A DNA stretch of 64,000 nt from Candidatus Aminicenantes bacterium (GCA_963702005.1 OY969696.1:2592001-2656000), one strand, 5' to 3'; shown: positions 3,396-34,000, counted from the stretch's first letter. The notes: a model not told the origin generated them from the sequence alone. Numbers and translations are program-made.

Positions 3396-4743
3396 GTTTT
3401 CTATGCTCGCGGGCGATCAGGATGCCCAGGGCGATCCAGACGGCAACGACGGCCAAGTTGAACTTGGCGAAACCCTCGATCTTGAAGGCGAAGACGCTCG
3501 TCCCTAAAAGGACGGTCAAGGCGGACAGGACGTCCCCGGACCGGTGAAAGAACGTGTCGATGGCCGCCTTGGCCTTGTATTTGGCCTCCCGTGACGTGAT
3601 CAGGAATAGGGCGTGACGCGTCGTGTTCATCAGGGAGTAGTCGGTGGCGTTCTCGACGGCCTTGGTCCATTTCACGGCCAGCAACGTTGCACCCAAGCTT
3701 ACCGCCGCGTAGCCGCCGAAGGCCAGGACGGGGAGGAAGAATAGGGCGCCTCGGACGCCGACCGCTCTGAAGATCCGGGAGACCAGGAAGAGCTGTATGA
3801 CGACGGCGAGCAGGTTGAAGACCGTGAAGAAATCCGCATAGAGCTGACCCAGGTAATCGACCGTGCTCAAGCCGCCCATCGTCCCCGCCGCCGCCGCCGC
3901 CTGGGCGGCTCGGCTGAAGACCCGGTCCAGAATGTATTGGCCATTCGTGTTGACGAGGTTCAAGACCATTATGAATAAGGCGATCAGGAGAAGGTAGCGG
4001 CTCGAGAAGAGAAGACGGAAACCTCCGCCCTTGGCGAGGGGTTTTTCTCCGAGGGCTTGGGCCTCCCGTGACTTCAGGCGGATCCGGTCGACCTCCCTGC
4101 GGTGGACGACCAGGGTCAGGAGGATACAGATGCTGAGCACGGCGCCGGCCACGATCATCATCGCGTAGCAGCCGAGCGAGGCGACCAAAACCTTGACGAT
4201 CGCGCTTCCGGTCAGGGCCCCAAAGGTCGCACCGAAGGCGATGAGAGGAAAGAGCCTTCGGCCTTCGGCTTCCGTGTAGATGTCGTTGGCGAACCCCCAG
4301 AATTGGGCGGGAAGCATGACGCTGAAAACGCCCGCCCAGACGAAGAAGGCGATCCCCATCGTGCCCAGCGGCGTCCCGAAGAGATAGAGGCCGTAGAAGA
4401 GGACGAGGTTGCTTATAAAGAAGACGAGGACGGTGGCGATGAGTTTTTGGCGGGGGACACGGGAGGCGAGATGGCTGAAGGCCTTGACGGCGAAGACGAG
4501 GACCACGGCCGTCGCGGCGGACAGGTAGCTCTTATATTCGGCGCCCTTCCCGGCGTTGATCAGGGCGTCCCGGACGGGTTTGACGATGTAGTAGCAGGTC
4601 ATAAGGAGGTAGACGTTCAGGACAAGGAGGACGGCCGTGGAGGCCTCGCCGGGATGGACTTCCGAGAACAGCCGCAGGAACCGATAGAGGGGCGGCTCGG
4701 GCTTCGGGAGCGCGGCCGACCTCTCGTTCTTTTCCAAGGTCAA
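3367..4743 (-). CDS. Nucleotide transporter, TLC/Npt ATP:ADP antiporter family
   Basis: About 12 hydrophobic segments. Motifs YYIVKPVRDAL, QFWGFANDIY..EGRRLFPLI, DYSL and KYKAKAAIDTFFHRSGD. The TTG start overlaps the upstream stop. Confidence 0.85.
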   Translation of the reverse strand: MTLEKNERSAALPKPEPPLYRFLRLFSEVHPGEASTAVLLVLNVYLLMTCYYIVKPVRDALINAGKGAEYKSYLSAATAVVLVFAVKAFSHLASRVPRQKLIATVLVFFISNLVLFYGLYLFGTPLGTMGIAFFVWAGVFSVMLPAQFWGFANDIYTEAEGRRLFPLIAFGATFGALTGSAIVKVLVASLGCYAMMIVAGAVLSICILLTLVVHRREVDRIRLKSREAQALGEKPLAKGGGFRLLFSSRYLLLIALFIMVLNLVNTNGQYILDRVFSRAAQAAAAAGTMGGLSTVDYLGQLYADFFTVFNLLAVVIQLFLVSRIFRAVGVRGALFFLPVLAFGGYAAVSLGATLLAVKWTKAVENATDYSLMNTTRHALFLITSREAKYKAKAAIDTFFHRSGDVLSALTVLLGTSVFAFKIEGFAKFNLAVVAVWIALGILIAREHRKLTSGGPPGS

Positions 4744-22627: not shown

Positions 22628-22686
22628 AAGGTTCGAGCGGGAAAGAGAATTTAGGGCCGGTGCTTTTGGGCGTTGCGCCAGAAGGC
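22628..22686 (+). repeat. 59-bp direct repeat, left boundary of the defence island
   Basis: aaggttcgagcgggaaagagaatttagggccggtgcttttgggcgttgcgccagaaggc is identical to 33843-33901. Confidence 0.95.
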
Positions 22687-22703
22687 CTAAGCCGCAGGCG
22701 TCT

Positions 22704-23384
22704 GGGGTCAAACCTACACTTTGTCACAAAGTAAAGATCCCCGCGGCAAGCCGCGGGGCATTAGGAGCGCAGCTTCAAGGCCAGCTGCGCAGGCCCTTGC
22801 TCCAGTTCTCGGTGACTGACGATGTACTTCGCGATCACATCCCTCGTCATCCGGTCTCCGACCGTCCTTGCGAAATATCCGTCCTCCCACACTTCCCCGC
22901 CCCACAGCTTCTTTTTCAAGCCCGCAAACTCGCGAAACAACCCCCTCCCACTCATGCTCTTTATGATCCTGACGACCTCCCCGATCGATCGCGATGGCGG
23001 AAATGATACTAGCAAATGAATATGATCTTCGGTAATTTCCATCTCGATGATTTCAATATCGTACGATTCGCAAATCTCTCCCACGATCTGTTTCGCTCGT
23101 TCCCGGACTTCCACCCGCTCGAAAATCTTCTTCCGGTACTTCGGACACCAGACCAGATGGTAGGACGTGTCGTAGACCGAATGACTCGTCCGTTTCAGCG
23201 TCACCCATATACTTTACCACACTCCCGAGCAAGGGCCTTTGTGGATAAGGGGGACTTTCCGGTCCCCCTTATCACCCCCTCGGCAAGGCATACATTCCAC
23301 CCCGTGGCAAGCCACGGGGCAGCCTGTAAAGCTTTCGTGCAAAAAGGAAATTTACACTAAGGGTAAAAGTGTAGGTTTGACCCC
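22704..23384. mobile_element. IS200/IS605-family element (tnpA only) inside a 19-bp inverted-repeat palindrome
   Basis: Subterminal hairpins ccccgcggcaagccgcgggg (22739-22758) and ccccgtggcaagccacgggg (23300-23319). The outer IR ggggtcaaacctacacttt lies at 22704-22722 and its inverse at 23366-23384. Confidence 0.85.
22761..23204 (-). CDS. tnpA: IS200/IS605 Y1 (HUH) transposase
   Basis: Motifs YHLVWCPKYR, DHIHLL, LWGGEVWEDGYF and catalytic Tyr in KYI. Confidence 0.95.
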   Translation of the reverse strand: MTLKRTSHSVYDTSYHLVWCPKYRKKIFERVEVRERAKQIVGEICESYDIEIIEMEITEDHIHLLVSFPPSRSIGEVVRIIKSMSGRGLFREFAGLKKKLWGGEVWEDGYFARTVGDRMTRDVIAKYIVSHRELEQGPAQLALKLRS

Positions 23385-23388
23385 GATC

Positions 23389-26300
23389 CTACTCAAACCT
23401 GGTTCTTATATATTCGGCGGCGCTTTCCGGGCTGAGCTTAACACTCCCTGGGCCGCTCCTCACGTAGAAATCCCCACTCGCGGCCTCCTCGGTACCCTTC
23501 CACTTCAAAAAGACCGGCTCAGGGCTCCTCTGACAACTGACCAGGCAGACCGTCTTCCCCTGGACAATCTGAGTTTTCGGGTCGATGCAGGTGCCGGCCC
23601 GATCGCCGAGGCCGTTCCGGACCGCTTGGGCGAGATGTCTCATGAATTCGTCGTCGCTCTCGAACCGATCCTTCTCGATGCCCGTCACGGTGCCTTCGTC
23701 GGCAACCCCGATCAGCAGGTCTCCGCCGGCCGTATTGAGGAATGCGGCGATCGTCTTCAGCACGGAATGGGTGATGAGCTTATCGTCTTTCTTATCCTCC
23801 CGAAGGTTCCAGCGCAAGCTCGACTTGAACTCCAAGGTCTTCGACTCTCCTCTTTTGATCAGCTCCTCGGCCTGCCTGTGGGCCCGCAAGTAATGGTCGA
23901 ACAGGAAATCGCGCAGGGCCGCCCCAAAGGCCCGATCGTCAGTGATCCGCTTATACAGGTCGAAGTTCGAGTCCACGATCTCCTGGATTGCGTCCTCGAC
24001 TTTATGGTCGAACGTCAGACGGATATTCTCGCGGGTATTGACCCTGGCGCTCGCGTCGAGGGCGGCGTCCTCGTTGAGCTTTTGCAGGATTTGCCCGAGA
24101 GTCAGCCTGTGCTCCGGCCCGAGGTTCAACCCGAATCTCTCATTGAGCTCGGCGATGATCTGGGAGAGCGGCTCGAGCAGTTCCTCCTGTCCGCTGCGTT
24201 GATCCTTTGTCATGACGGGGGCAAGCTGGCCGCCCTTCCGTTCGGGCGTGATCTTGCCGCTCCCCGTCTGCCGGATGCGGTACGACTCCATGTCGATATT
24301 CTGCTGGACCTCGCGCGGCAGGGTGTCCTGGTCGCCGGGAATCAGTCGCCTCAGGTGGCGGGCAAAGACGTAGAGCTTTTCGAGCTCGGTGTCGGCAAAG
24401 GTCAAAACCTGGGCCAGGAAAGCATAGAGGCGGACGTAATCGGTCAACTGGCCGCGAAAATCATGCTGTTCGTCGGCCGGCAGTCCCGCGAATCGCGTCG
24501 TCACCGGGGCCAGGACGGCATAAAGCTGGTCCTGGGTCGCTCTCCTGTCGAAATAGACCTTGGCGAACCGCTCGACATCCGCTTTGGTGAAGACAGGGAA
24601 GCCCATGAGCCGGGTCTGGATTTCGTAGAGCAGATTCGGGTCGGTCGCTTCCGACAAAAGCGTCGTCTCGTAATACGGCTCGAAAGCGTCCCGGATGGCG
24701 TCTGCCTCGTTGGCGAAATCGAGGACCATAGTTCCCCGCTTTTCCGGATGGATCCGGTTGAGCCGCGATAGCGTCTGGACAGCGTTCACCCCGCCGAGCT
24801 TTTTATCCACGTACATCGTATGGAGGAGAGGCTGGTCGAAGCCGGTCTGGAACTTGTTGGCGCATACGAGGAACCTATATTCCGACCGCTCGAAGACTTT
24901 GGCCGTTTGTTTCTCCGAAAAGCCGTTCATCCCCGATTCCGTGTATGACTGGCCGCCGTCCGCGACCTTCCCGGAGAATGCGACCAGGGCTTTGAAGGGA
25001 AGGCCTTTTTCCTGGATGTAGTGGTCCAAAGCCAGCTTAAAACGGACGGCGTGCAGGCGCGACCGGGTCACGATCATGGCCTTGGCCTTGCCGCCGATCT
25101 CATTGGAAACCTGGGCGACGAAGTGCTCGACCATGATCCGCACCTTCTCTCCGATGGCGTGAGGGTGGAGCTCGACAAAGGCTTTGAGAAGGTATTGGGC
25201 TTTGCTCTTGTCGTAGCGGGGGTCGTCCTCGATTTTCTTTAGGAGGCGCCAGTAAGCCTTGTAAGTCGTATAGTTGTCGAGGACGTCGAGGATAAAGCCC
25301 TCCTCGATCGCCTGCCGCATGCTGTAGAGGTGGAACGGCGCGAATTTCCCGTCGGCCCGCTTCGTCCCGAATAGCTCGAGCGTCTTGGACTTGGGTGTCG
25401 CCGTGAAGGCGAACAGCGAAAGGTTCGGCAGGCGGCCGCGCTTTTCCATCTCGGCCAGGATCGTCGCTTCGAGTTCCTCCTCGGGAGTTTCCGCCCCGGC
25501 CTCTTCCCGCTCAGCCTCTTCGAGGCTCCCGGCCGCCAGCACCGACTTGAGGCTCTTCGTGCTCTCGCCCGACTGGGAGGAATGGGCCTCGTCCACGATC
25601 ACGGCGAATCGATGTCCCGGGAGATCTCCGATCTCGCCGACGATGACCGGGAACTTCTGGAGCGTGGTCACGATGATCGTTTTTCCCGATTCGAGGGCCT
25701 GCTTGAGCTGGTGCGAAGTTGTATCGATGTTCTCGACGACGCCCAACGTCTGTTCGAACTGGCGCATGGTCGCCTGGAGCTGGCGGTCGAGGATGCGCCG
25801 GTCGGTGACGACGACGATCGAGTCGAAAACGCGCTTATCCTGAAGGTCGTGCAGGGTCGCCAGCCGGTGGGCCAGCCAGGCGATGGTGAAGCTCTTGCCG
25901 CTTCCGGCCGAATGTTGGACGAGATAGCGCTGACCGGCTCCGTTCTGCCGGGCATGGGCGACGAGTCGTCGCACGGCATCGAGCTGCTGGTAGCGGGGGA
26001 AAATGAGCGTCCGCCCGCTTATTTTTCGACCCCTTTCGTCTTCGTCCTCGATCTCGTGGATGAATTGGCGGATGAGGTCGAGGACGCTGTCGCGGGCCCA
26101 GATTTTCTCCCAGAGATAGGCCGTCGGGTAACCCTTCTGCGTCGGCGGAACGGGGGGATTTCCCGCGCCGCCGAACTTCCCTTGGTTAAAGGGCAGGAAG
26201 CGCGTCCTCGGTCCGGCGAGTCGAGTCGTCACGTAGACGAGGTCCGGGTCCACGGCGAAATGGGCCAGGCACCGGCCGTAGGCGAAAAGCGGCTCGCGCG

Positions 26301-26898
26301 GGTCGCGGTCGATCTTGTACTGCCGTATGGAATCCTCAACCGTCTGCCCCGTGAGGGGGTTCTTGAGCTCGGCGGTGAAGATCGGGACACCATTCAGAAA
26401 TAGCACCATGTCGAGGCTCTGGGCGGTTTTTTCGCTGTAGGCGAGCTGACGGACGACCGCGAAGAGATTCGCCGCGTGGAGCCGCTGGAGCGCTTCGTTA
26501 AGCCCGCTCGACGGACGGAAGAAGGCCGTCTGGAACTTACAGCCGGAGTCCTTGAAGCCGTTGCGGAGGACGTCGAGGGTGCCGCGCCGCTCGATTTCGC
26601 GCGACAGCCGCTTGAGAAATTGCTCCTTGACCGCGGCCCCATGGTGTTGTTTGAGCTTTTCCCATTCCTTGGGCTGGGTCGCCAGGACGAAATCGATGAC
26701 GGCGCTCGGCAGAAGGCAGAGCGACTGGTCATATTCTTCGGGCGGACGCTTACGATAGCCCCCGGCCGGGAATTCACCATAGGGCGTGGGCTCTTCGCGG
26801 ACCCCGGCGGCCTCTCCGACGCATGCGTCCGGCCCAAAGCGCAACAGCCCGCACTCGATCGTATTTTCAAAGCTTCGTTCGGAGACTTCAACCGTCAT
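23389..26898 (-). CDS. hsdR: Type I restriction subunit R fused to a C-terminal Schlafen/AlbA_2 domain
   Basis: D..ELKN nuclease, HSAGSGKS, DEAH, FTATPK, QTGFDQP and QTLSRLNR. The C-terminus reads GESKTLEFKSS...IAAFLNTAGGDLLIGVADEG...FYVR. Confidence 0.92.
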   Translation of the reverse strand: MTVEVSERSFENTIECGLLRFGPDACVGEAAGVREEPTPYGEFPAGGYRKRPPEEYDQSLCLLPSAVIDFVLATQPKEWEKLKQHHGAAVKEQFLKRLSREIERRGTLDVLRNGFKDSGCKFQTAFFRPSSGLNEALQRLHAANLFAVVRQLAYSEKTAQSLDMVLFLNGVPIFTAELKNPLTGQTVEDSIRQYKIDRDPREPLFAYGRCLAHFAVDPDLVYVTTRLAGPRTRFLPFNQGKFGGAGNPPVPPTQKGYPTAYLWEKIWARDSVLDLIRQFIHEIEDEDERGRKISGRTLIFPRYQQLDAVRRLVAHARQNGAGQRYLVQHSAGSGKSFTIAWLAHRLATLHDLQDKRVFDSIVVVTDRRILDRQLQATMRQFEQTLGVVENIDTTSHQLKQALESGKTIIVTTLQKFPVIVGEIGDLPGHRFAVIVDEAHSSQSGESTKSLKSVLAAGSLEEAEREEAGAETPEEELEATILAEMEKRGRLPNLSLFAFTATPKSKTLELFGTKRADGKFAPFHLYSMRQAIEEGFILDVLDNYTTYKAYWRLLKKIEDDPRYDKSKAQYLLKAFVELHPHAIGEKVRIMVEHFVAQVSNEIGGKAKAMIVTRSRLHAVRFKLALDHYIQEKGLPFKALVAFSGKVADGGQSYTESGMNGFSEKQTAKVFERSEYRFLVCANKFQTGFDQPLLHTMYVDKKLGGVNAVQTLSRLNRIHPEKRGTMVLDFANEADAIRDAFEPYYETTLLSEATDPNLLYEIQTRLMGFPVFTKADVERFAKVYFDRRATQDQLYAVLAPVTTRFAGLPADEQHDFRGQLTDYVRLYAFLAQVLTFADTELEKLYVFARHLRRLIPGDQDTLPREVQQNIDMESYRIRQTGSGKITPERKGGQLAPVMTKDQRSGQEELLEPLSQIIAELNERFGLNLGPEHRLTLGQILQKLNEDAALDASARVNTRENIRLTFDHKVEDAIQEIVDSNFDLYKRITDDRAFGAALRDFLFDHYLRAHRQAEELIKRGESKTLEFKSSLRWNLREDKKDDKLITHSVLKTIAAFLNTAGGDLLIGVADEGTVTGIEKDRFESDDEFMRHLAQAVRNGLGDRAGTCIDPKTQIVQGKTVCLVSCQRSPEPVFLKWKGTEEAASGDFYVRSGPGSVKLSPESAAEYIRTRFE

Positions 26899-27829
26899 GG
26901 CGCTTCTCCCGAGGTCGCCACGGCCCGCCGGGTTCCCAGACCTCGTTGAATTCCGTTCTCGCATTGAGCGCTTGAAGAACCGGGAGGAGGAAGTTTCTTA
27001 TTCTTATCACGACTTGCTGGAGCGGCAGGGTTGCTGAACTCTTCCCGATCCTGCGCAGAAACGCTCCCCATTGTATGTTCTTGTCCTTATCTTGGGCGAA
27101 CTCGTCAGTAAACGCAACCGGCAGCTCTGATAGTGATGTAAACACTCCTCGTTTGAGCGACACCCGCACGGCTCTCTGAAGCTCTGCGCCATTAAATGAA
27201 AATAGGTCCCCCAAGACAGCGATGTCATAAAAATCTTTCATTCGGCTGTTCAACATCCCAAGTTCCAACATAGCATCGAGTTTTTCCGTTATGGTAGTTT
27301 CTTTTCGATAGGCTAGGATACGAGGCGCCGGCATGTCGAGGAGAGTTGGGTAAAAAACGTATTCCGGTTCCGGCCATACGCTGTCGCCGATCCCGATATC
27401 AACTTGAAGAGGAATCCTGATGTTCCCCAAACGGGCCATGAACTTGGTGCGAAATCCGTGGTATTCGGTCTCGTCGCGGATCGGCTCGACAACCATGGTG
27501 TCCGCAACGAAGGTCAATCCGTCGGGCTCCACTTTCATACGGCCGATTTTCGAGAAGACTCGACGGAGCCGGGCTTCCGTAGGGTTGCCGATTCCCAAGA
27601 GATCAAGGTCCATCGTCGTACGCGGCAAATCGCTGGTCCATAGCACAAACAGCATGGCGCCTTTTACGACAAAACTCTCGGCGTGGTCGGATTTCCCAAG
27701 CCGATAGAGCCAACGCTCGAACGCGTACCTTCTCAAGACCGGCGTGAAATCGTGAGTCCTCGCCGGGTCGAGGTTGAGCAGCCGCTGATGAACGGAAGCC
27801 GGGAGATTCGTTATAGGGTCCTTGGTCAC
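26888..27829 (-). CDS. AbiEii/AbiGii nucleotidyltransferase toxin (type IV TA)
   Basis: Motifs VKGAML, RTTMDLDL, VDIGIGD, TEKL and NSRMKDFYD. GTGA overlap with the antitoxin stop. Confidence 0.9.
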   Translation of the reverse strand: MTKDPITNLPASVHQRLLNLDPARTHDFTPVLRRYAFERWLYRLGKSDHAESFVVKGAMLFVLWTSDLPRTTMDLDLLGIGNPTEARLRRVFSKIGRMKVEPDGLTFVADTMVVEPIRDETEYHGFRTKFMARLGNIRIPLQVDIGIGDSVWPEPEYVFYPTLLDMPAPRILAYRKETTITEKLDAMLELGMLNSRMKDFYDIAVLGDLFSFNGAELQRAVRVSLKRGVFTSLSELPVAFTDEFAQDKDKNIQWGAFLRRIGKSSATLPLQQVVIRIRNFLLPVLQALNARTEFNEVWEPGGPWRPREKRHDG

Positions 27830-28440
27830 GACAGGGCTTCCATATAGGGCTTCATAATCTTCTGAACTCGACAAATCTTGGCATAATGCCATAGCTCGTC
27901 GCGGGTGGCCTTGTGCGACCGAAGACAATCTCTGAGCGCCTCGACAGCCACGTCCAGCCCGATTTTATTGCGGAACTTGAACGTGTCAGCAACCGTCTTG
28001 GCGGGGTTGTAGACGCGGATTCTGCCTCCCGGAAAATCACGGACTTCGATACCTTCAGAGAAGGCCTTTCCCGATGAGTAGACAAATCGCAGGCGGAGAG
28101 TCTCGATTCTCGGCCGCCAAGCGCTATTGGGGAGGGCCAGCCAAACGTCATATGGCTCCTGTGTGCCGATTTCATGAAAACGGAGAGCGGAAAGGAGGCA
28201 AACAACCCCCTTCGGCACGAGCTTTGAGGCTTCGATAAGTGTCCGATGCTCCTCCATCTGCCCGCCGAGCCTATAGAGCCCGCGGCCCGCCCGTTCGATG
28301 AGGCCTCTTTTATAAAGATAACGCAGCATCTCGCGGGAAATTCCCATTTCGGCAAGATCTCGGGAGCGCAGACTTCCACGGCTCTTAAGAAGCCCGATGG
28401 CCTTCTTCGTAACCTCGCCCGAAATGCGAATTTTTTCCAT
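27826..28440 (-). CDS. AbiEi antitoxin / transcriptional regulator
   Basis: Winged-HTH RAGRGLY. Motifs GVVCLLSAL.FH, YNPAKTVADTFKFRNKIGLDVAVEAL and MKPYMEA. Confidence 0.9.
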   Translation of the reverse strand: MEKIRISGEVTKKAIGLLKSRGSLRSRDLAEMGISREMLRYLYKRGLIERAGRGLYRLGGQMEEHRTLIEASKLVPKGVVCLLSALRFHEIGTQEPYDVWLALPNSAWRPRIETLRLRFVYSSGKAFSEGIEVRDFPGGRIRVYNPAKTVADTFKFRNKIGLDVAVEALRDCLRSHKATRDELWHYAKICRVQKIMKPYMEALS

Positions 28441-28459
28441 ATTTGACATTTCCCAGGTA

Positions 28460-28487
28460 ATTATAAACATTTACATAGGAATTGCAA
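28460..28487 (-). promoter_or_regulatory. Putative sigma70 promoter for abiEi-abiEii-hsdR
   Basis: Minus strand TTGCAA-16 nt-TATAAT, about 20 bp upstream of the ATG at 28440. Confidence 0.55.
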
Positions 28488-28586: not shown

Positions 28587-28896
28587 CGATTTTCGGCTGA
28601 TATTCCATATGCTTTGTAACTTCTCTTTGTCTTTTCCAGAACGACCATCATCTTCTCATTTTAGGCCAAATGAATCTCGCTAATCTAGAATTCGAGAAAA
28701 GTCCCTTCGGCTTTCTTCTATGGACCGGTAATGATCCGGCTCATATTGCTGCTTGCCGTATGGCAGTGATTATCTTAAGATGTTTTATAGCGCTTAGTTT
28801 TTTCCCCAATATTTCGCTTCCGCTGAGGATGTTCCAGCGCTATCAACGCTTCCATGTCGGCCATGGCGCATATGAATTGACAGGATTCAAAATAAG

Positions 28897-29862
28897 ATGA
28901 GAACCCTAAAAACATTTTGGACAGGGCTAATCACCTTAGGTGAAGAACCCCTCCAACCGAATCCTCCGTTTATTGGAGCCGGTTGGACGGCGATTCTTGC
29001 ACCTCAAAGGAAAGATCCGCCCACGATTTATAAAGGAAGAGAAATAGTAATTAGCACAAGATCGTGGGCGGTAGCTCAACGTGCACTGGATCTTATCCAC
29101 GGTTGTCATCAGCTAGTGAATGATATCCCTCCATTTGTTTCCATACACCCGATCGCATACAACATGACAGAGCCCCGCTGGATGGAACCAGAAGAGAGAC
29201 AACGCCAATATGAAATAGAATTCAGCACCGCGGATTTCCCTCTTGCGTGTGCCCTCGCGGCAAAAGCTTCGCGACGTCGGCAATGGGCCTATGCTGTTGC
29301 CAAGTGGAAGTTCAGTAGGTCACTGTACTCAGTTCACCATATTGATCTTGAGCCATGGATATCTCGTCATCTGCCAGTTTCCTCATTCCCAGATGATCAT
29401 GTAATGTTCGCTTATGCCATTGTTACATCTTACTCAGTCCTGGAGGATCTTGGCATGGAACTTAGGGCTTCATCCAGCAGACCAAGCCGGGTTAAGGGAG
29501 AATGGAATCCTATTGTGCTACAGGATCTTGAACGACGCTTGAATAAAGGTGGTGTAAATTTAAAGGAGACACTACTCTGGACCGTGCGCGGGACAAAACG
29601 CAAAATAGAGAAGCGCAGGCCCATTCCACCAGCGGCAAGGGCCCCGTGGTCTGGGTGGACCGTGCGAGACTCTGAGCTTCCGATAGCGGACGCTATTGCT
29701 TATGCCGACTGGATGCGTGACTGTGTCGCCTCACACAACGTAAAAGATCTGACGCGCGTTCTTTCACCTTATGATGTGGTCAATGTACAGCATTTAGCGA
29801 GAAGGCTACTACTGGAATGTCTTGGTTTCTGGCGCTGGCGTGAGAAAAGGCGTTCCCAATAA
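28897..29862 (+). CDS. Hypothetical protein, possible HEPN-like RNase
   Basis: 321-aa ORF of lower GC. Helical C-terminus with YSVLE and an R-X5-H motif (RDCVASH). Confidence 0.6.
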   Translation: MRTLKTFWTGLITLGEEPLQPNPPFIGAGWTAILAPQRKDPPTIYKGREIVISTRSWAVAQRALDLIHGCHQLVNDIPPFVSIHPIAYNMTEPRWMEPEERQRQYEIEFSTADFPLACALAAKASRRRQWAYAVAKWKFSRSLYSVHHIDLEPWISRHLPVSSFPDDHVMFAYAIVTSYSVLEDLGMELRASSSRPSRVKGEWNPIVLQDLERRLNKGGVNLKETLLWTVRGTKRKIEKRRPIPPAARAPWSGWTVRDSELPIADAIAYADWMRDCVASHNVKDLTRVLSPYDVVNVQHLARRLLLECLGFWRWREKRRSQ

Positions 29863-29911: not shown

Positions 29912-31252
29912 CTATCGACTTACCCCGTTTGTTATGTTCCTGATATCAATTTTACCAGTAACCGCAAAAGAAATGAGGGCCGTGCGGTATTCTTTGAGAC
30001 AACCCGCTGCTCTCCTTATGGTCATCAGCAAAGCATCAATCTTGCTAACTGCATTGTCCAATTGATCGGCTATGCGTTGTTGTTCTTTTATGGGCGGAAT
30101 TGGTGTTGATATTTCAAAGAAACCATCGGGGTACAACCGTAGCCTAGATTTCCAGATGCCTTTAGAGTACCTAGTAAGTTCGGCTACATGGAGAGGTGTT
30201 CTGCAAAGGTAGTCATAATAGCGCGGGTCGAGAGAACTTGTTCGTAGAACATAAACATTATATGAAGGGCTGACAATACCGCTTTCTTTTGATATCCCCA
30301 ATGCGCCCATCCAGGCCCACATCGTGTTTATCGCGAGTTCACCTGCACTACATATTTTATAATCCTCCAATGACTCGGCCTCGATCATTGTGACATTCTT
30401 CTCGGAGCGCCGAGTTACTCCCGAAAGATGCGATACCGTCAGTAGCTCCTCATCGCCATAATCGGATCGGATATCCGAATCTTCAAATAGTCTTTTGTTG
30501 GATTCTATCGCCCAGTGTGTCGGAATCTCCCCGAGCCACTCGACGCCGGAGTCTTTCATGGGTACGGTTGGGACGAGGCCTTTGGTGACTGCTTGGGTGA
30601 TTAGGGCCGTGCGCTTTTCCTGAAGCAATTCGATCAGCCGTTCTTTTTTCTCGATGAGGGCATCGATCTTTGCCGTCTCACGTTCGAGGAAGGCAGATAT
30701 GGCTCTTTGTTCATCAGCGTCGGGGATAGCAATGGGGATGCTCATAACCTGGTCGGGACTCGCTCTCGGCATTTTTGTCCCATATGTCATTGCATTTATC
30801 CAGGCTATGAAGCCGGGACTCAAGAGTTGATAAGCTAGAAAAGATGGACTAATCTCTCCTCCAGATCGAAACACAAGGAGTTCTGAGGAACATCGTCCAT
30901 CAAAACTCGAGAGGAGCACTTTTGCTAGATATGGACGGAGCTTTCCGAATAGAACATCTCCTGATCGAAAACAGGTATATAGCCCTTCGGCCTCTTGCCC
31001 CTCGCTTGACCCGTATCCCGCTGCGCTAACCATTTTTCCCGTGAGCGATTCAAGATGTTCCAAGCCTATATATGGAATCTCCACCGCAATTCCGTCTATG
31101 CGGTCTGTTATTAAAGGCGCAATATACTTTAGGGGCCGTACTTTCCAGTTCTCCGGGATTTTTCCCAGCCACTCGACGCCTGAATCTTTGTATCGAGGAT
31201 AGGGGTGGAACTGTCGGCGTTCGATTCCCAAGCTATTTTGATCTTTACTCAC
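29912..31252 (-). CDS. hsdS: Type I R-M specificity subunit
   Basis: Two KDSGVEWLG(K/E)IP conserved repeats, two TRDs, P..EQ..I spacers and a C-terminal VTGKID. Probable GTG start at 31252. Confidence 0.93.
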   Translation of the reverse strand: MSKDQNSLGIERRQFHPYPRYKDSGVEWLGKIPENWKVRPLKYIAPLITDRIDGIAVEIPYIGLEHLESLTGKMVSAAGYGSSEGQEAEGLYTCFRSGDVLFGKLRPYLAKVLLSSFDGRCSSELLVFRSGGEISPSFLAYQLLSPGFIAWINAMTYGTKMPRASPDQVMSIPIAIPDADEQRAISAFLERETAKIDALIEKKERLIELLQEKRTALITQAVTKGLVPTVPMKDSGVEWLGEIPTHWAIESNKRLFEDSDIRSDYGDEELLTVSHLSGVTRRSEKNVTMIEAESLEDYKICSAGELAINTMWAWMGALGISKESGIVSPSYNVYVLRTSSLDPRYYDYLCRTPLHVAELTRYSKGIWKSRLRLYPDGFFEISTPIPPIKEQQRIADQLDNAVSKIDALLMTIRRAAGCLKEYRTALISFAVTGKIDIRNITNGVSR

Positions 31253-31253
31253 G

Positions 31254-31619
31254 TTAAATGTATTCCCGATCGATCGGCCCATCGCCTAAATCTATAACTG
31301 AGGAGCAATAATAGACGCGGAAAAGCTTCCTGAACGTTTTCATTGAACGGTCTTTCGGCCAGAGAGACGGATCTGCACACCAGCCGTCGAGTTCGATCTC
31401 AAAAATGGTCTTGAAGTTCCGCTTTAACCAGCTCTCCGCGTCCGCATCTTGTTCCGGTATAAGATATGCTGTCGAATCTGCGACCAGTTCTTCTAAATTC
31501 AACGCCGCATCATCATCGGGGTTTTTCCTGGCCCACTCCAAGAAACCCTCCGTCGGCACGACAACGAGGACGTTGCGATTTATCGTAGGCAGGTTTTCAT
31601 AGTGCATATCATGTTTCAT
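31254..31619 (-). CDS. Small hypothetical protein inserted between hsdM and hsdS
   Basis: 121 aa with protein-like motifs INR....P...FLEW, YLIP and IFEIELDGW....LWP. Fits the operon spacing. Confidence 0.7.
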   Translation of the reverse strand: MKHDMHYENLPTINRNVLVVVPTEGFLEWARKNPDDDAALNLEELVADSTAYLIPEQDADAESWLKRNFKTIFEIELDGWCADPSLWPKDRSMKTFRKLFRVYYCSSVIDLGDGPIDREYI

Positions 31620-31642: not shown

Positions 31643-33760
31643 CTAATCCTCTGGTTTCGATCCTGTAATCTCAGCCAACATCTGGACGATATCCTTCTCG
31701 CTAGCCCGGATATCCGCCTCGATCTCCTCGAGCGGGCGGGGTGGGACATATTTGTAGAAATAACGGTTGAAGTTGATTTCGTAGCCGATGAGGCCGACCA
31801 GACCGTCCTTGGAGTCACGTCTGGACGTATCGATCCAAGCGTCGGGGACATGGGGTAGCACCTCTCGTTCGAAAAACGCCCGGACGCTTGCCGGGACGCC
31901 CTGGGCGTCGATCGGATCGGGGCCGTCGACCAACGAAATGCTTTCGGTGTCACGGAGCTCGGGGTCGGGCTCCGGATTCCCGTCTTTGTCGCGGCAGACA
32001 GCGGCGGTCTCGTCCCGCTCCGACAGAGCCGCGAGAATCGCCTTGGTGATCGGCACCGGGAGCTTGAGCCCGGCTTTCTTTGCCGCCGCCTCGAGGATAT
32101 CGAGAAATTCTTCCCTGTCTTTGAAAAGCTCGTTCGGGAGCGCCCGCAGGAGACTTCTGATTTCCTCTTGAAACTCCCGCCCTTCAGCCTGCTCCTTCGC
32201 GGCGGCCTGGCCTTTTTTCTTGGACTGGGCCAGATTCTGGAAAGCCCGCTCGTCCTCAAGCCGCGCGATACGCTCCGGGCTCGCCTGGAAATTGAGGCGA
32301 AGGGGCCGCTCGACCGTGACTTTGCGGAAACCGAAATGCTTGGTCGGGTAGATCTTGACGAACTCGCCCTCCTCGAAGGCGCCGAGAAGCCGGAGGATTT
32401 CCTTGGCCTTTTCCGGAGGAATCTCGCGTCGCTTATCGCCGAGGCTTTTCCGCATCGGCACCCAGAAGGAAGTTGCGTCGATGAGCTGGACATTACCCTT
32501 GCGCTTCGGGGCTTTACGATTGGTGAGGACCCAGATATAGGTGGCGATTCCGGTATTATAGAAGAGCTGTTCCGGAACCGCGATCAGCGCCTCGAGCCAG
32601 TCTTTCTCGAGGACGAAGCGACGGATCTCGCTCTCGCCGCTTCCGGCGTCGCCCGTAAATAGCGGCGAGCCGTTCATGATGATGGCGACGCGCGAGCCGC
32701 CCTCCTTGGGTTCTTTCATATGGGCGATCATATGGAGGAGGAAGAGCAGCTGGCCGTCGCTGATGCGGGGCAGACCCGGGCCGAAGCGTCCCGCCGGCCC
32801 GCGTTCGTGCTCGGCGGTGACGGCTTCCTCGTCACGCTTCCAGTCCTTGCCGTAGGGAGGATTGGCGATCAGGTAATCGAACGAGCGGCCGGAATGGCGG
32901 TCGTTCGAGAGCGTGCTGCCGAAGACGATATTTTCAGCGTCCAGGCCGTCGGCCGACTTCATAAATAGGTCGGATTTGCAGACGGCGAATGTTTCAGGAT
33001 TGACCTCTTGGCCGAAGAGGTGGACGCCGGCCTCGGGATTGAGCGGCTCGCGGATAACGGCGCCGTTTTTGCGTCGGCCGACGAGGATATGGTCTTTCGT
33101 GGTTGTCAGCATGCCGCCAGAGCCTGAGCAGGGGTCGTAGACCGAGACGACGGCGCCCTTGCGGCGGATGCGGACTTCGTCGCCGGATAGGAGCAGGTCG
33201 GCCATGAGATGGACGACATCGCGCGGGGTGAAGTGCTCGCCCGGGTTTTCGTTCAAGGCTTCGTTGAACTTGCGGATGAGCTCCTCGAAAATCGTGCCCA
33301 TGGTGGGGTTGTCGACTTTATCGGGATGGAGGTCGACGTTTTTGAAGCGCTCGAGCACCTGGAAGAGGAGGCCGGCTTCATCGAGTTTGGCGATTGTGTT
33401 GTCGAAGTCGAATTTCTCGAGGACCTCGCGCATGTTCAGGCTGAAGCCGGCGATGTAGTTGCGCAGGTTGGCGGCCAGATGGGGCGCGTCGGCCAGGAGC
33501 TTCTCGATATCGTAACGGGAGGTGGCGTAGAAGGCGAAGCCGGCGGCTTTTCTAAGCTGGGGATCGAGGTTTTCGAGCTTCGTGCCCTTGAGTTTGGCCT
33601 GGGTTTCGAGGACGCGCGGCTTGGTCGGGGCAAGGACGCCGTCCAGGCGGCGGAGGACGGTGAGCGGCAGGATGACATCCTGGTACTTGCCGCGTTTGAA
33701 CGTGTCGCGGATAAGGTCGGCGACTCCCCAGATGAAGCTGACGATTTCGCTATGGTTCAC
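31643..33760 (-). CDS. hsdM: Type I R-M N6-adenine methyltransferase
   Basis: Motifs FIWGVADLIR, GEHFTPRDVV, YDPCSGSGGML, NPPYG, FYNTGIATY and GYEINFNRYFY. GTG start at 33760. Confidence 0.95.
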   Translation of the reverse strand: MNHSEIVSFIWGVADLIRDTFKRGKYQDVILPLTVLRRLDGVLAPTKPRVLETQAKLKGTKLENLDPQLRKAAGFAFYATSRYDIEKLLADAPHLAANLRNYIAGFSLNMREVLEKFDFDNTIAKLDEAGLLFQVLERFKNVDLHPDKVDNPTMGTIFEELIRKFNEALNENPGEHFTPRDVVHLMADLLLSGDEVRIRRKGAVVSVYDPCSGSGGMLTTTKDHILVGRRKNGAVIREPLNPEAGVHLFGQEVNPETFAVCKSDLFMKSADGLDAENIVFGSTLSNDRHSGRSFDYLIANPPYGKDWKRDEEAVTAEHERGPAGRFGPGLPRISDGQLLFLLHMIAHMKEPKEGGSRVAIIMNGSPLFTGDAGSGESEIRRFVLEKDWLEALIAVPEQLFYNTGIATYIWVLTNRKAPKRKGNVQLIDATSFWVPMRKSLGDKRREIPPEKAKEILRLLGAFEEGEFVKIYPTKHFGFRKVTVERPLRLNFQASPERIARLEDERAFQNLAQSKKKGQAAAKEQAEGREFQEEIRSLLRALPNELFKDREEFLDILEAAAKKAGLKLPVPITKAILAALSERDETAAVCRDKDGNPEPDPELRDTESISLVDGPDPIDAQGVPASVRAFFEREVLPHVPDAWIDTSRRDSKDGLVGLIGYEINFNRYFYKYVPPRPLEEIEADIRASEKDIVQMLAEITGSKPED

Positions 33761-33842
33761 AGGGCTGTCTCCAAAAAGCGCTTCCCCATGGATGAACGGG
33801 TTCAAGATAGAGGATAGCCCCGCTCCGGCCGGGATGTCAATA

Positions 33843-33901
33843 AAGGTTCGAGCGGGAAAGAGAATTTAGGGCCGGTGCTTTTGGGCGTTGCGCCAGAAGG
33901 C
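33843..33901 (+). repeat. 59-bp direct repeat, right boundary of the defence island
   Basis: Identical to 22628-22686. Confidence 0.95.
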
Positions 33902-34000
33902 ATAGGCCGGGATGCCGGCCGGCCAGGATGAGGCAGTCGAGCAAAGACTGGACGGGCTGCGCCCAGGCGGTTCAAGGCTTAACTCGCCGGGAAGGCGGGA

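Follow-up and report, generated by a model that had tools for sequence, protein, structure and literature searches.

Can a restriction enzyme that cuts DNA carry, in the same polypeptide, a second effector directed at RNA, and what would switch such an effector on? This question is raised by hsdR::SLFN, a gene in a 64,000-nucleotide (nt) stretch of the genome of a Candidatus Aminicenantes bacterium (GCA_963702005.1 OY969696.1:2592001-2656000; the whole stretch is called the window here, and positions are counted from its first letter). In this gene the restriction subunit of a type I restriction-modification (R-M) system continues in frame into a Schlafen/AlbA_2 domain. Prokaryotic Schlafen nucleases that cleave transfer RNA (tRNases) were described in 2025-26 as phage-defence effectors occurring in 55 fusion architectures (PMC12330615, PMC13056530). 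An initial annotation of the window had proposed that the fused domain is a built-in abortive ribonuclease (RNase), triggered either when restriction is blocked or when HsdR is activated. The analysis reported here establishes that the fusion is genuine and recurs at hundreds of loci, and that no other part of the protein is as constrained as the appended domain; it suggests that the restriction complex may serve as the sensor and the Schlafen tail as an RNA-directed effector.

The hsdR::SLFN open reading frame (ORF) lies on the minus strand at 23389-26964, as do all its regions named below, and runs for 1191 amino acids (aa) from its first ATG without an internal stop. Its true start is probably M23 (nt 26898), since the first residue of P0191, a homologue of 47% identity, aligns with M23, the codon is preceded by a GGGAGAAG stretch, and a start there overlaps the stop of the neighbouring abiEii gene by 11 nt. 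Pfam matches HSDR_N at residues 164-251, SWI2_SNF2 at 326-562, a T1R_D3-like domain at 674-750 and SLFN_AlbA_2 at 1040-1177, and the SWI2_SNF2, ResIII and DEAD matches together cover residues 323-562. The N-terminal PD-(D/E)xK nuclease region (26212-26475) holds D185 in LDMVLF and E199-L-K201, and the superfamily 2 (SF2) motor with the T1R_D3-like region (24715-25989) holds the Walker A motif GSGKS at 354-358 and DEAH at 458-461; the nuclease and motor motif columns are nearly invariant among 31 aligned HsdR homologues. PADLOC labels the protein REase_I (E 2e-37), and the only NCBIfam match is the hsdR subfamily model TIGR00348, at 209.7 bits and thus under its cut-off of 284.55. With the nuclease and translocase motifs of an HsdR intact and the cognate hsdM and hsdS genes in the same operon, the HsdR part (nuclease, motor and C-terminal helical region) looks complete and functional, as far as sequence can tell.

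What follows HsdR is a Schlafen/AlbA_2 domain of a single lobe at residues 1040-1177 (23434-23847). The initial annotation had recognised it, within a range (23389-23875) that corresponds to residues 1030-1191 plus the stop codon, from three strings, each of which the translation contains: GESKTLEFK at residues 1039-1047 (nt 23850-23824), the pattern IAAFLNT.GG.LLIGV.D, which reads IAAFLNTAGGDLLIGVADEG at residues 1072-1091 (nt 23751-23692), and FYVR at 1166-1169. The AlbA_2 assignment is borne out by Pfam, in which PF04326 matches with an E-value of 2.6e-19 and 70.3 bits, well over the gathering cut-off of 25.3, along model positions 1-117 of 118. A 90-sequence alignment, whose members go as low as 37% identity, served to model residues 1000-1191 with AlphaFold2; the mean predicted local distance difference test (pLDDT) score is 95.3. 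Searched against the PDB with Foldseek, this model matches Schlafen-type structures with probability 1.00 and E-values of 6e-7 to 3e-4 (3lmm, 5yd0, 7ksp, 9o0d, 2kyy, 7zep, 9nyy); the top matches comprise DIP2311 (3lmm), the SLFN13 N-domain (5yd0), the SAMD9 DNA-binding/tRNase domain (7ksp, 9o0d), 2kyy and SLFN11/14/12/5, and the lower-ranked ones are only unrelated methyltransferases with E-values above 0.02. Thus the single 1191-aa frame, the Pfam match, the model and the structural matches agree on an in-frame fusion to a complete HsdR, as initially described. The Pfam score, the Foldseek probability and the 1522 database matches described below put the resemblance well outside chance.

Does this domain retain the residues of an active Schlafen nuclease? 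A sequence search of the PDB gave a weak match (E 0.008), in which ESKTLEFK is aligned with ESQSIEFK/ESQLVEFK of SLFN11 chains and LLIGVADEG with L(L/F)(F/I)GVDD(E/K)S of SLFN8/13 and SLFN11. By this alignment, E1040, E1045 and K1047 of the candidate active-site motif E1040-x4-E1045-F-K1047 (23824-23847), together with D1089 of GVAD (23698-23700), a candidate third acidic residue that falls on the second D of GVDD, stand at Schlafen active-site positions. E1040, E1045 and D1089 are the probable counterparts of SLFN11 E209, E214 and D252, and the PDB titles 'SLFN11 E209A' and 'schlafen14-E211A' are consistent with catalytic acidic residues. In the literature, the E-x4-E-x-K motif to which the initial annotation had pointed is described as catalytic in Schlafen tRNases and as indispensable for cutting tRNA, and the double substitution E15A/D20A inactivates the prokaryotic Schlafen nuclease RorSlfn5 (PMC13056530). 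We infer that the tail is a single-lobe, metal-dependent endoribonuclease, and by analogy its substrate is most likely tRNA. A second nuclease directed at DNA, for example one that cuts single-stranded DNA (ssDNA) or processes ends during translocation, would fit the fusion to a DNA translocase, and N-terminal domains of the Schlafen family bind both DNA and RNA according to the titles of 7cux and 7ksp. However, HsdR already has an intact PD-(D/E)xK DNase, and the prokaryotic and human Schlafen nucleases described in the literature consulted cleave tRNA; we regard a DNA-cutting tail as very improbable.

Sequence conservation bears on whether the domain is used for catalysis at all. In an alignment of 85 sequences, which are related and therefore overstate the number of independent observations, E1040 is kept in 83 and each of E1045, K1047 and D1089 in 84, and all four are kept in at least 90% of the deeper 90-sequence alignment. 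The exceptions among the 85 are one locus with A/A/T at 1040/1045/1047 (L063), one with G at 1040 (L077) and one with E at 1089 (L032). Strict motif patterns matched 61 of 84 sequences, the misses being mostly conservative changes at non-catalytic positions. Selection was compared by region using the ratio of nonsynonymous to synonymous substitution rates (dN/dS) in 250 random pairs of 47 full-length hsdR::SLFN genes, at a dS of about 1. The median was 0.081 for the Schlafen domain, 0.110 for the junction, 0.123 for the motor, 0.146 for the nuclease region, 0.150 for the C-terminal helical region and 0.237 for the last 14 residues. Constraint is greatest in the appended Schlafen domain, which is under strong purifying selection. 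The exceptional L063 frame (L063:6962-10624) is open over 1221 aa and otherwise intact, and may encode a catalytically dead yet retained Schlafen tail.

Such a tail would fit a reading in which the domain binds nucleic acids or a metal, does not cleave RNA, and adjusts how HsdR assembles or translocates or how restriction is alleviated. Nucleic-acid binding is known for AlbA_2 domains, the structural matches include 'hSAMD9_DBD with DNA' (7ksp) and SLFN5 entries titled 'DNA/RNA binding protein', and NCBI names homologues 'putative DNA binding domain-containing' and 'RNA-binding domain-containing'. Besides L063, which keeps the domain without three of the active-site residues, this view can draw on an HsdR of 67% identity from a cassette of the same type, G050, which manages without the domain. 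Against it, the four catalytic candidates persist in 83-84 of the 85 sequences, dN/dS is lower in this domain than elsewhere in the protein, and the match to SAMD9 AlbA_2 is itself titled tRNase domain (9o0d). A purely binding role is one that we consider unlikely.

Is the fusion itself sound? The initial annotation had raised the possibility that a stop codon was missed in sequencing, and a chimeric join would have the same effect. How common the fusion is can be judged from several surveys. At E <= 1e-3, the C-terminal 192 residues match 1522 proteins in the database, 655-2085 aa long; the 120 matches listed from these are 79-93% identical and all carry PF04326 with at least one HsdR or helicase Pfam domain. 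In a scan of one genome per species, at least 573 loci were confirmed (573 of 599 matched stretches). The best 80 loci are 74-96% identical across the C-terminal 192 residues, and their genome names span about 16 phyla: Aminicenantes, Vicinamibacteria, Thermoanaerobaculia, Gemmatimonadota, Nitrospira, Alpha- and Gammaproteobacteria, 'Deltaproteobacteria', Thermodesulfobacteriota, Myxococcales, Methylomirabilota/Rokubacteria, Binatia, Eisenbacteria, Fermentibacteria, Latescibacterota, Phycisphaerae, Chloroflexota, Cyanobium, Microcystis, Spirochaetota and Eubacteriales. In 27 of these 80 the frame leaves the contig end; among the 53 that can be assessed, 42 are open over at least 1100 aa and 11 are short, the latter including frameshift-like splits, deletion derivatives and rearrangements, with the proviso that loci drawn from metagenome-assembled genomes may carry assembly errors. 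Closer to the window, an uninterrupted full-length fusion occurs in 17 of 401 genomes sampled from the same phylum, with pieces in several more, and 40 close relatives hold four full-length orthologues (85-95% identity), one broken copy and one fragment, a patchy distribution.

The window's genome is one contig of 4.3 Mb, and a 3903-nt contig from an independent run covers 23366-24500 without a gap, crossing the junction. Nothing was found in favour of an assembly or sequencing artefact, and the open frames from independent assemblies, the orthologues in the phylum sample and among close relatives, the gapless contig and the single-contig genome exclude it. Metatranscriptomic contigs cover 23396-24500 in pieces at 85-95% likeness, and one of them spans 23805-24178 across the HsdR/Schlafen junction, although DNA can occur in such libraries. 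In the search of sequencing runs, no run contained more than 0.27 of the sampled words. A tblastn search of PLSDB with residues 889-1191 turned up no plasmid copy of the fusion: its 23 records stay under 60% identity, and in none does the match extend to 80% of the query. They represent different Schlafen architectures and bear the annotations ATP-binding protein, DUF262 or N-6 DNA methylase. Two of the deletion derivatives retain only the 3' end of the cassette: L086:9374-10591 joins a Fic_N fragment to the HsdR tail and Schlafen domain, and L029:9410-10624 joins hsdM codons 16-75 to HsdR from residue 876 on, followed by the Schlafen domain.

Where exactly does HsdR end and the new domain begin? 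In the same 401-genome sample, the alignment of sister HsdRs that lack the Schlafen domain (41-51% identity; most frames about 1015-1120 aa) ends at query residues 1013-1046, and the HsdR of G050 (1056 aa) aligns to residue 1025 and is unrelated beyond. The domain therefore does stand after a normal HsdR C-terminus, as had been claimed. Since G050 homology stops at residue 1025, only about 14 residues (1026-1039; 23848-23889) separate the HsdR core from E1040. This junction is predicted to be helical rather than disordered: helices extend over residues 2-39 of the modelled fragment, and the means of pLDDT in 10-residue blocks over residues 1000-1039 are 84-97. A junction so short and helical makes the coupling of the two parts look tight in the model, not that of a floppy linker.

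The C-terminal position also receives other domains. Four sister HsdRs of 45-51% identity (L088:542-4198, L089:363-3908, L090:156-3944 and L091:555-4100) end in a Peptidase_S24 domain of LexA/UmuD type rather than a Schlafen domain. P0191 (1329 aa) has the order HsdR-SLFN-S24 and is collinear with the window protein across the HsdR and Schlafen parts. These proteins belong to the same HsdR clade (43-51% identity) and bear their accessory domain at the same position, the autoprotease standing instead of, or beside, the Schlafen domain. Thus the C-terminus of this clade is a slot for accessory modules, and the Schlafen fusion is older than the split of the lineages that P0191 and the window protein represent. 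On a restriction subunit, an S24 autoprotease could act in alleviating restriction or in releasing the tail.

What would control such a nuclease? In the reading that we favour, with a probability of about 40%, the R-M complex would be the sensor and the HsdR-borne Schlafen domain a second, RNA-directed effector, a tRNase switched on by engagement of the complex. HsdM2-HsdS meeting an unmethylated site would engage two HsdR subunits. Their two Schlafen tails would then be brought together, either in one complex or between collided or stalled complexes, or would be freed from an inhibitory contact. The paired tails would form a two-lobed active RNase, so that tRNA is cut and translation slowed during DNA restriction. 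The complex of EcoR124I has the composition R2M2S1, and its HsdR C-terminal helical domain has been proposed to contact the methyltransferase and to have a role in the control of translocation, cleavage and the ATPase (PMC5248579). Of the two lobes of mammalian Schlafens, the C-lobe alone has homology to AlbA_2 (10.64898/2026.05.29.728809), and a single-lobe domain should therefore need a partner.

Several characterised systems offer analogies for this control. In SLFN-pAgo, the Schlafen domain is set off by detection of DNA, and a two-lobed Schlafen is restored through dimerisation (10.64898/2026.05.29.728809); in Cash (Csx15-Schlafen), cA4 switches the nuclease on and polymerisation follows (PMC13462974). 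RorSlfn5 is a hexamer that binds a phage chaperone, and SLFN11 is activated by binding of ssDNA (PMC13056530). Given these analogies, of the two triggers offered by the initial annotation we lean towards activated HsdR rather than blocked restriction. The RNase activity of the tail, its gating by oligomerisation and its trigger are all what we infer at this stage. A homodimer prediction with two copies of the 192-aa C-terminal fragment gave a score of 0.00 (mark 0.42) in a run made without controls, a value that weighs on neither side of the pairing question.

Several points weigh against this reading. RNase activity is a prediction, both for this protein and for the homologues found, and the active-site motif is found throughout the AlbA_2 family, so that its presence is consistent with catalysis and is not specific evidence for it. 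The domain may have a non-catalytic role, as the L063 frame of more than 1200 aa and the glycine at position 1040 in L077 suggest, and 11 of the 53 assessable loci have frames that are frameshifted, deleted or rearranged. The closest Schlafen domains outside HsdR, in proteins of about 420 aa, stand beside a 5'-nucleotidase gene, a non-defence context that is known from two loci of one genus. Finally, an RNase switched on at each restriction event would be costly.

Whether the neighbouring genes speak for defence is the next part of the question. Upstream of hsdR::SLFN, all on the minus strand, are abiEii (26888-27928), immediately adjacent and encoding a DUF1814 nucleotidyltransferase toxin (Pfam AbiEii, E 4e-40; PADLOC, E 6.7e-94), abiEi (27826-28470), encoding the antitoxin and regulator (Pfam AbiEi_4; PADLOC AbiEi, E 2.5e-77), hsdS (29912-31282; Pfam Methylase_S; PADLOC Specificity_I, E 9e-109) and hsdM (31643-33805; Pfam N6_Mtase and HsdM_N; PADLOC MTase_I, E 2e-267). 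The pair has the composition of an AbiE type IV toxin-antitoxin system, with the AbiEi regulator followed by the AbiEii nucleotidyltransferase. An ORF of 121 aa between hsdM and hsdS (31254-31619, minus strand) has tblastn matches of 64% in L009 and 40% in L048. Between hsdS and abiEi, two plus-strand ORFs of 76 and 321 aa (28670-29862) occupy a stretch of low G+C content (0.48) that is absent from the closest relative, L009, in which hsdS ends at 3637 and abiEi starts at 3755. The 321-aa ORF falls with Atlas clusters of bacterial hypothetical proteins (score 0.97), and the neighbouring ORFs of 76, 121, 321 and 476 aa have no match in Pfam, PADLOC, NCBIfam or PHROGs.

This arrangement was compared among 36 related loci that hold hsdM, hsdS and hsdR::SLFN (range L009-L084). 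AbiEi and AbiEii are detected in 35 of them, usually between hsdM and hsdS: the order is hsdM-abiEi-abiEii-hsdS-hsdR in 33, hsdM-hsdS-AbiE-hsdR in two and without detected AbiE in one. The order of the window, hsdM-hsdS-abiEi-abiEii-hsdR, is shared by L009 and L010. AbiE is also present in G050, the HsdR of which lacks the Schlafen domain, and is detectable with the queries used in none of 11 more distant sister loci; AbiE therefore accompanies this HsdR clade rather than type I systems in general. Between hsdS and hsdR, 19 of the 36 cassettes have additional genes on the same strand as variable cargo, in a gap of 1.1-4.6 kb (L023:5910-7064, L026:5422-6573, L028:5883-7067, L053:3437-7011, L073:5473-6618 and others). 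Ten gap ORFs that were scanned include Fic_N with Fic, HTH (helix-turn-helix) with Peptidase_M78 and, in L053, an OLD-type ATPase-TOPRIM protein with a UvrD helicase, which is Gabija-like.

If the preferred reading is carried through to the whole cassette, the type I enzyme would be a collateral ribonuclease: recognition by HsdM2S and two engaged HsdR motors would license the Schlafen lobes to pair and cut tRNA, in a manner akin to type III CRISPR and SLFN-pAgo, with the sensing of nucleic acid linked to a halt in translation, and the enzyme would travel with AbiE as a highly conserved cassette among the roughly 16 phyla named. We advance this fuller picture tentatively.

The constant company of AbiE, another abortive-type module found in 35 of the 36 complete loci, can also be read in favour of a guard. 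In that case the intact complex would silence the RNase, and an anti-restriction factor such as Ocr, ArdA or a Stp-like protein would unleash translation arrest and abortive infection as a back-up. The precedent, correctly described by the initial annotation, is PrrC, which is latent with the type Ic enzyme EcoprrI and is activated by the T4 inhibitor of EcoprrI (PMC1484252, PMC3710099). Schlafen RNases in BREX loci have been termed back-up suicidal effectors (PMC12839542), the HsdR region to which the Schlafen domain is attached is the one proposed to contact the methyltransferase (PMC5248579), and the structural and conservation evidence for an active RNase fits a guard equally well. However, the characterised Schlafen systems considered here turn on when their sensor detects a ligand, not when the sensor is inhibited, and it would be mechanistically demanding for one fused domain to sense many unrelated anti-restriction proteins. 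On balance a guard is somewhat unlikely in our view.

The likeness to PrrC is one of design. PrrC ties a translation-targeting RNase to a type I R-M system and so places two layers of defence in one cassette; hsdR::SLFN would do the same, with the RNase-type domain as part of hsdR itself. PrrC, in contrast, stands as a polypeptide of its own that combines an ABC-ATPase N-domain with a HEPN-type nuclease, and its activation by anti-restriction is established, whereas hsdR::SLFN is known from sequence (PMC1484252, PMC3710099). Neither an ABC-ATPase nor a HEPN domain is matched by Pfam, PADLOC or NCBIfam in hsdR::SLFN or its neighbours, and the protein is therefore not a member of the PrrC/RloC family, although it may work like one.

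Downstream, the gene abuts an insertion sequence (IS). An element of IS200/IS605 type (22703-23388, minus strand) with a Y1 transposase ORF at 22761-23204 (Pfam Y1_Tnp, E 5e-40) ends directly at the hsdR stop. The genome has 11 copies of at least 613 bases, this one included, at 97-100% identity, and the longest reach window position 23388. The window protein ends in RTRFE, and its relatives extend up to 36 residues, commonly 4-17, past RTRF; for the two closest relatives, L003 and L009, the contig breaks off at residue 1181. It seems that the insertion took the place of an unconserved tail of hsdR. In addition, a 67-nt direct repeat of 97% identity occurs on the plus strand at 22628-22694 and, just upstream of the hsdM start, at 33843-33909. 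These are its only two copies in the 4.3-Mb genome, and they bracket the 11.2-kb block from hsdM to the IS element and may mark the boundaries of an island. No tRNA gene that could serve as an integration site lies in the window between 15000 and 40000, and no integrase was seen.

Which proteins outside HsdR carry the nearest Schlafen domains? At 45-52% identity, these domains are all C-terminal in their proteins: the family of about 420 aa already mentioned, TPR proteins and one protein with a weak PLD-like match. In the 420-430-aa proteins, the N-terminal part of about 260 aa has no family assignment. Two genes of this type, L096:10060-11322 (minus strand) and L097:9243-10532 (plus strand), lie directly downstream of a 5'-nucleotidase gene (Metallophos and 5_nucleotid_C). 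The idea that this family is a split version of the fusion within R-M operons was rejected: in G091 and G130, both of one genus, no hsd gene is present among the ten neighbouring ORFs scanned, and the context given here for the family is that of these two loci.

How does hsdR::SLFN compare with the Schlafen systems already described? Close in design are the prokaryotic pSlfn nucleases such as RorSlfn5 (Taboada et al., Nat Microbiol 2026, PMC13056530), which have the same single AlbA_2 domain with an Ex4(E/D)xK motif, a larger fused sensor and a defence-gene setting. The window offers the same setting, with the Schlafen domain fused to a putative sensor and hsdM, hsdS, abiEi and abiEii within 10 kb. 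The pSlfn nucleases cleave tRNA when triggered by phage, and by analogy the same activity would be expected of hsdR::SLFN (PMC13056530). Unlike in pSlfn, the fusion partner is a complete type I motor and nuclease subunit that works in a multi-subunit complex, and the Schlafen domain stands at its C-terminus. As partners, that study's main text names HisKinase, HTH, DUF5929, Ig-like, DUF262 and TBP-like domains; HsdR, ResIII and SNF2 have no mention there, and its Supplementary Table 2, with the 55 architectures, may include HsdR (PMC13056530).

Schlafen domains have been recruited into R-M systems before. Fusions to R-M methyltransferases and clusters of R-M-associated Schlafens have been reported (PMC13462974), as has the 'Schlatpase', a Schlafen-GHKL module fused to HsdS (preprint 10.64898/2026.05.29.728809), and homologues of this kind have been speculated to sense products of DNA cleavage. 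In these cases, however, the Schlafen domain sits on the methyltransferase or specificity subunit or comes with a GHKL ATPase, whereas here a bare Schlafen domain sits on the restriction subunit. SLFN-pAgo and Cash likewise combine a nucleic-acid-sensing module with a Schlafen tRNase controlled by oligomerisation. Their sensors differ, being a guide-loaded Argonaute with a GHKL ATPase or the cA4-binding Csx15; the candidate sensor here is the reading of methylation by HsdM2S together with the HsdR motor. The N-terminal nuclease of mammalian SLFN11/13/14 has the same fold, with aligned E, E, K and D residues at about 20% identity by Foldseek, and is also fused to a helicase-type ATPase. The mammalian proteins have two lobes and a C-terminal SF1-type helicase, in contrast to the single lobe and the upstream SF2 motor of HsdR. 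A Schlafen domain on HsdR is not described in the main texts of the literature searched, and the supplementary architecture tables of two studies (PMC13056530, PMC13462974) may list the fusion uncommented. The fusion is thus a further Schlafen immune architecture of an already known type, placed on the restriction subunit of an R-M system.

What would this mean for type I enzymes and for the Schlafen family? Should the tail prove to be an RNase under the control of the restriction complex, it would join DNA restriction and RNA-directed translation arrest, so far the business of separate proteins. A covalently attached RNase would also provide one polypeptide with separable mutants (in the DNase, the ATPase and the Schlafen site, or truncated at residue 1025) by which the state of a restriction enzyme could be read, whether idle, translocating, collided or inhibited. 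Such work is experimentally reachable, since cultured carriers of the fusion include Pelomicrobium sp. G1, Cyanobium sp. Morenito 9A2 and Microcystis elabens FACHB-917. If true, the finding would add an architecture built on an R-M subunit to the Schlafen immune fusions that are common to bacteria and animals.

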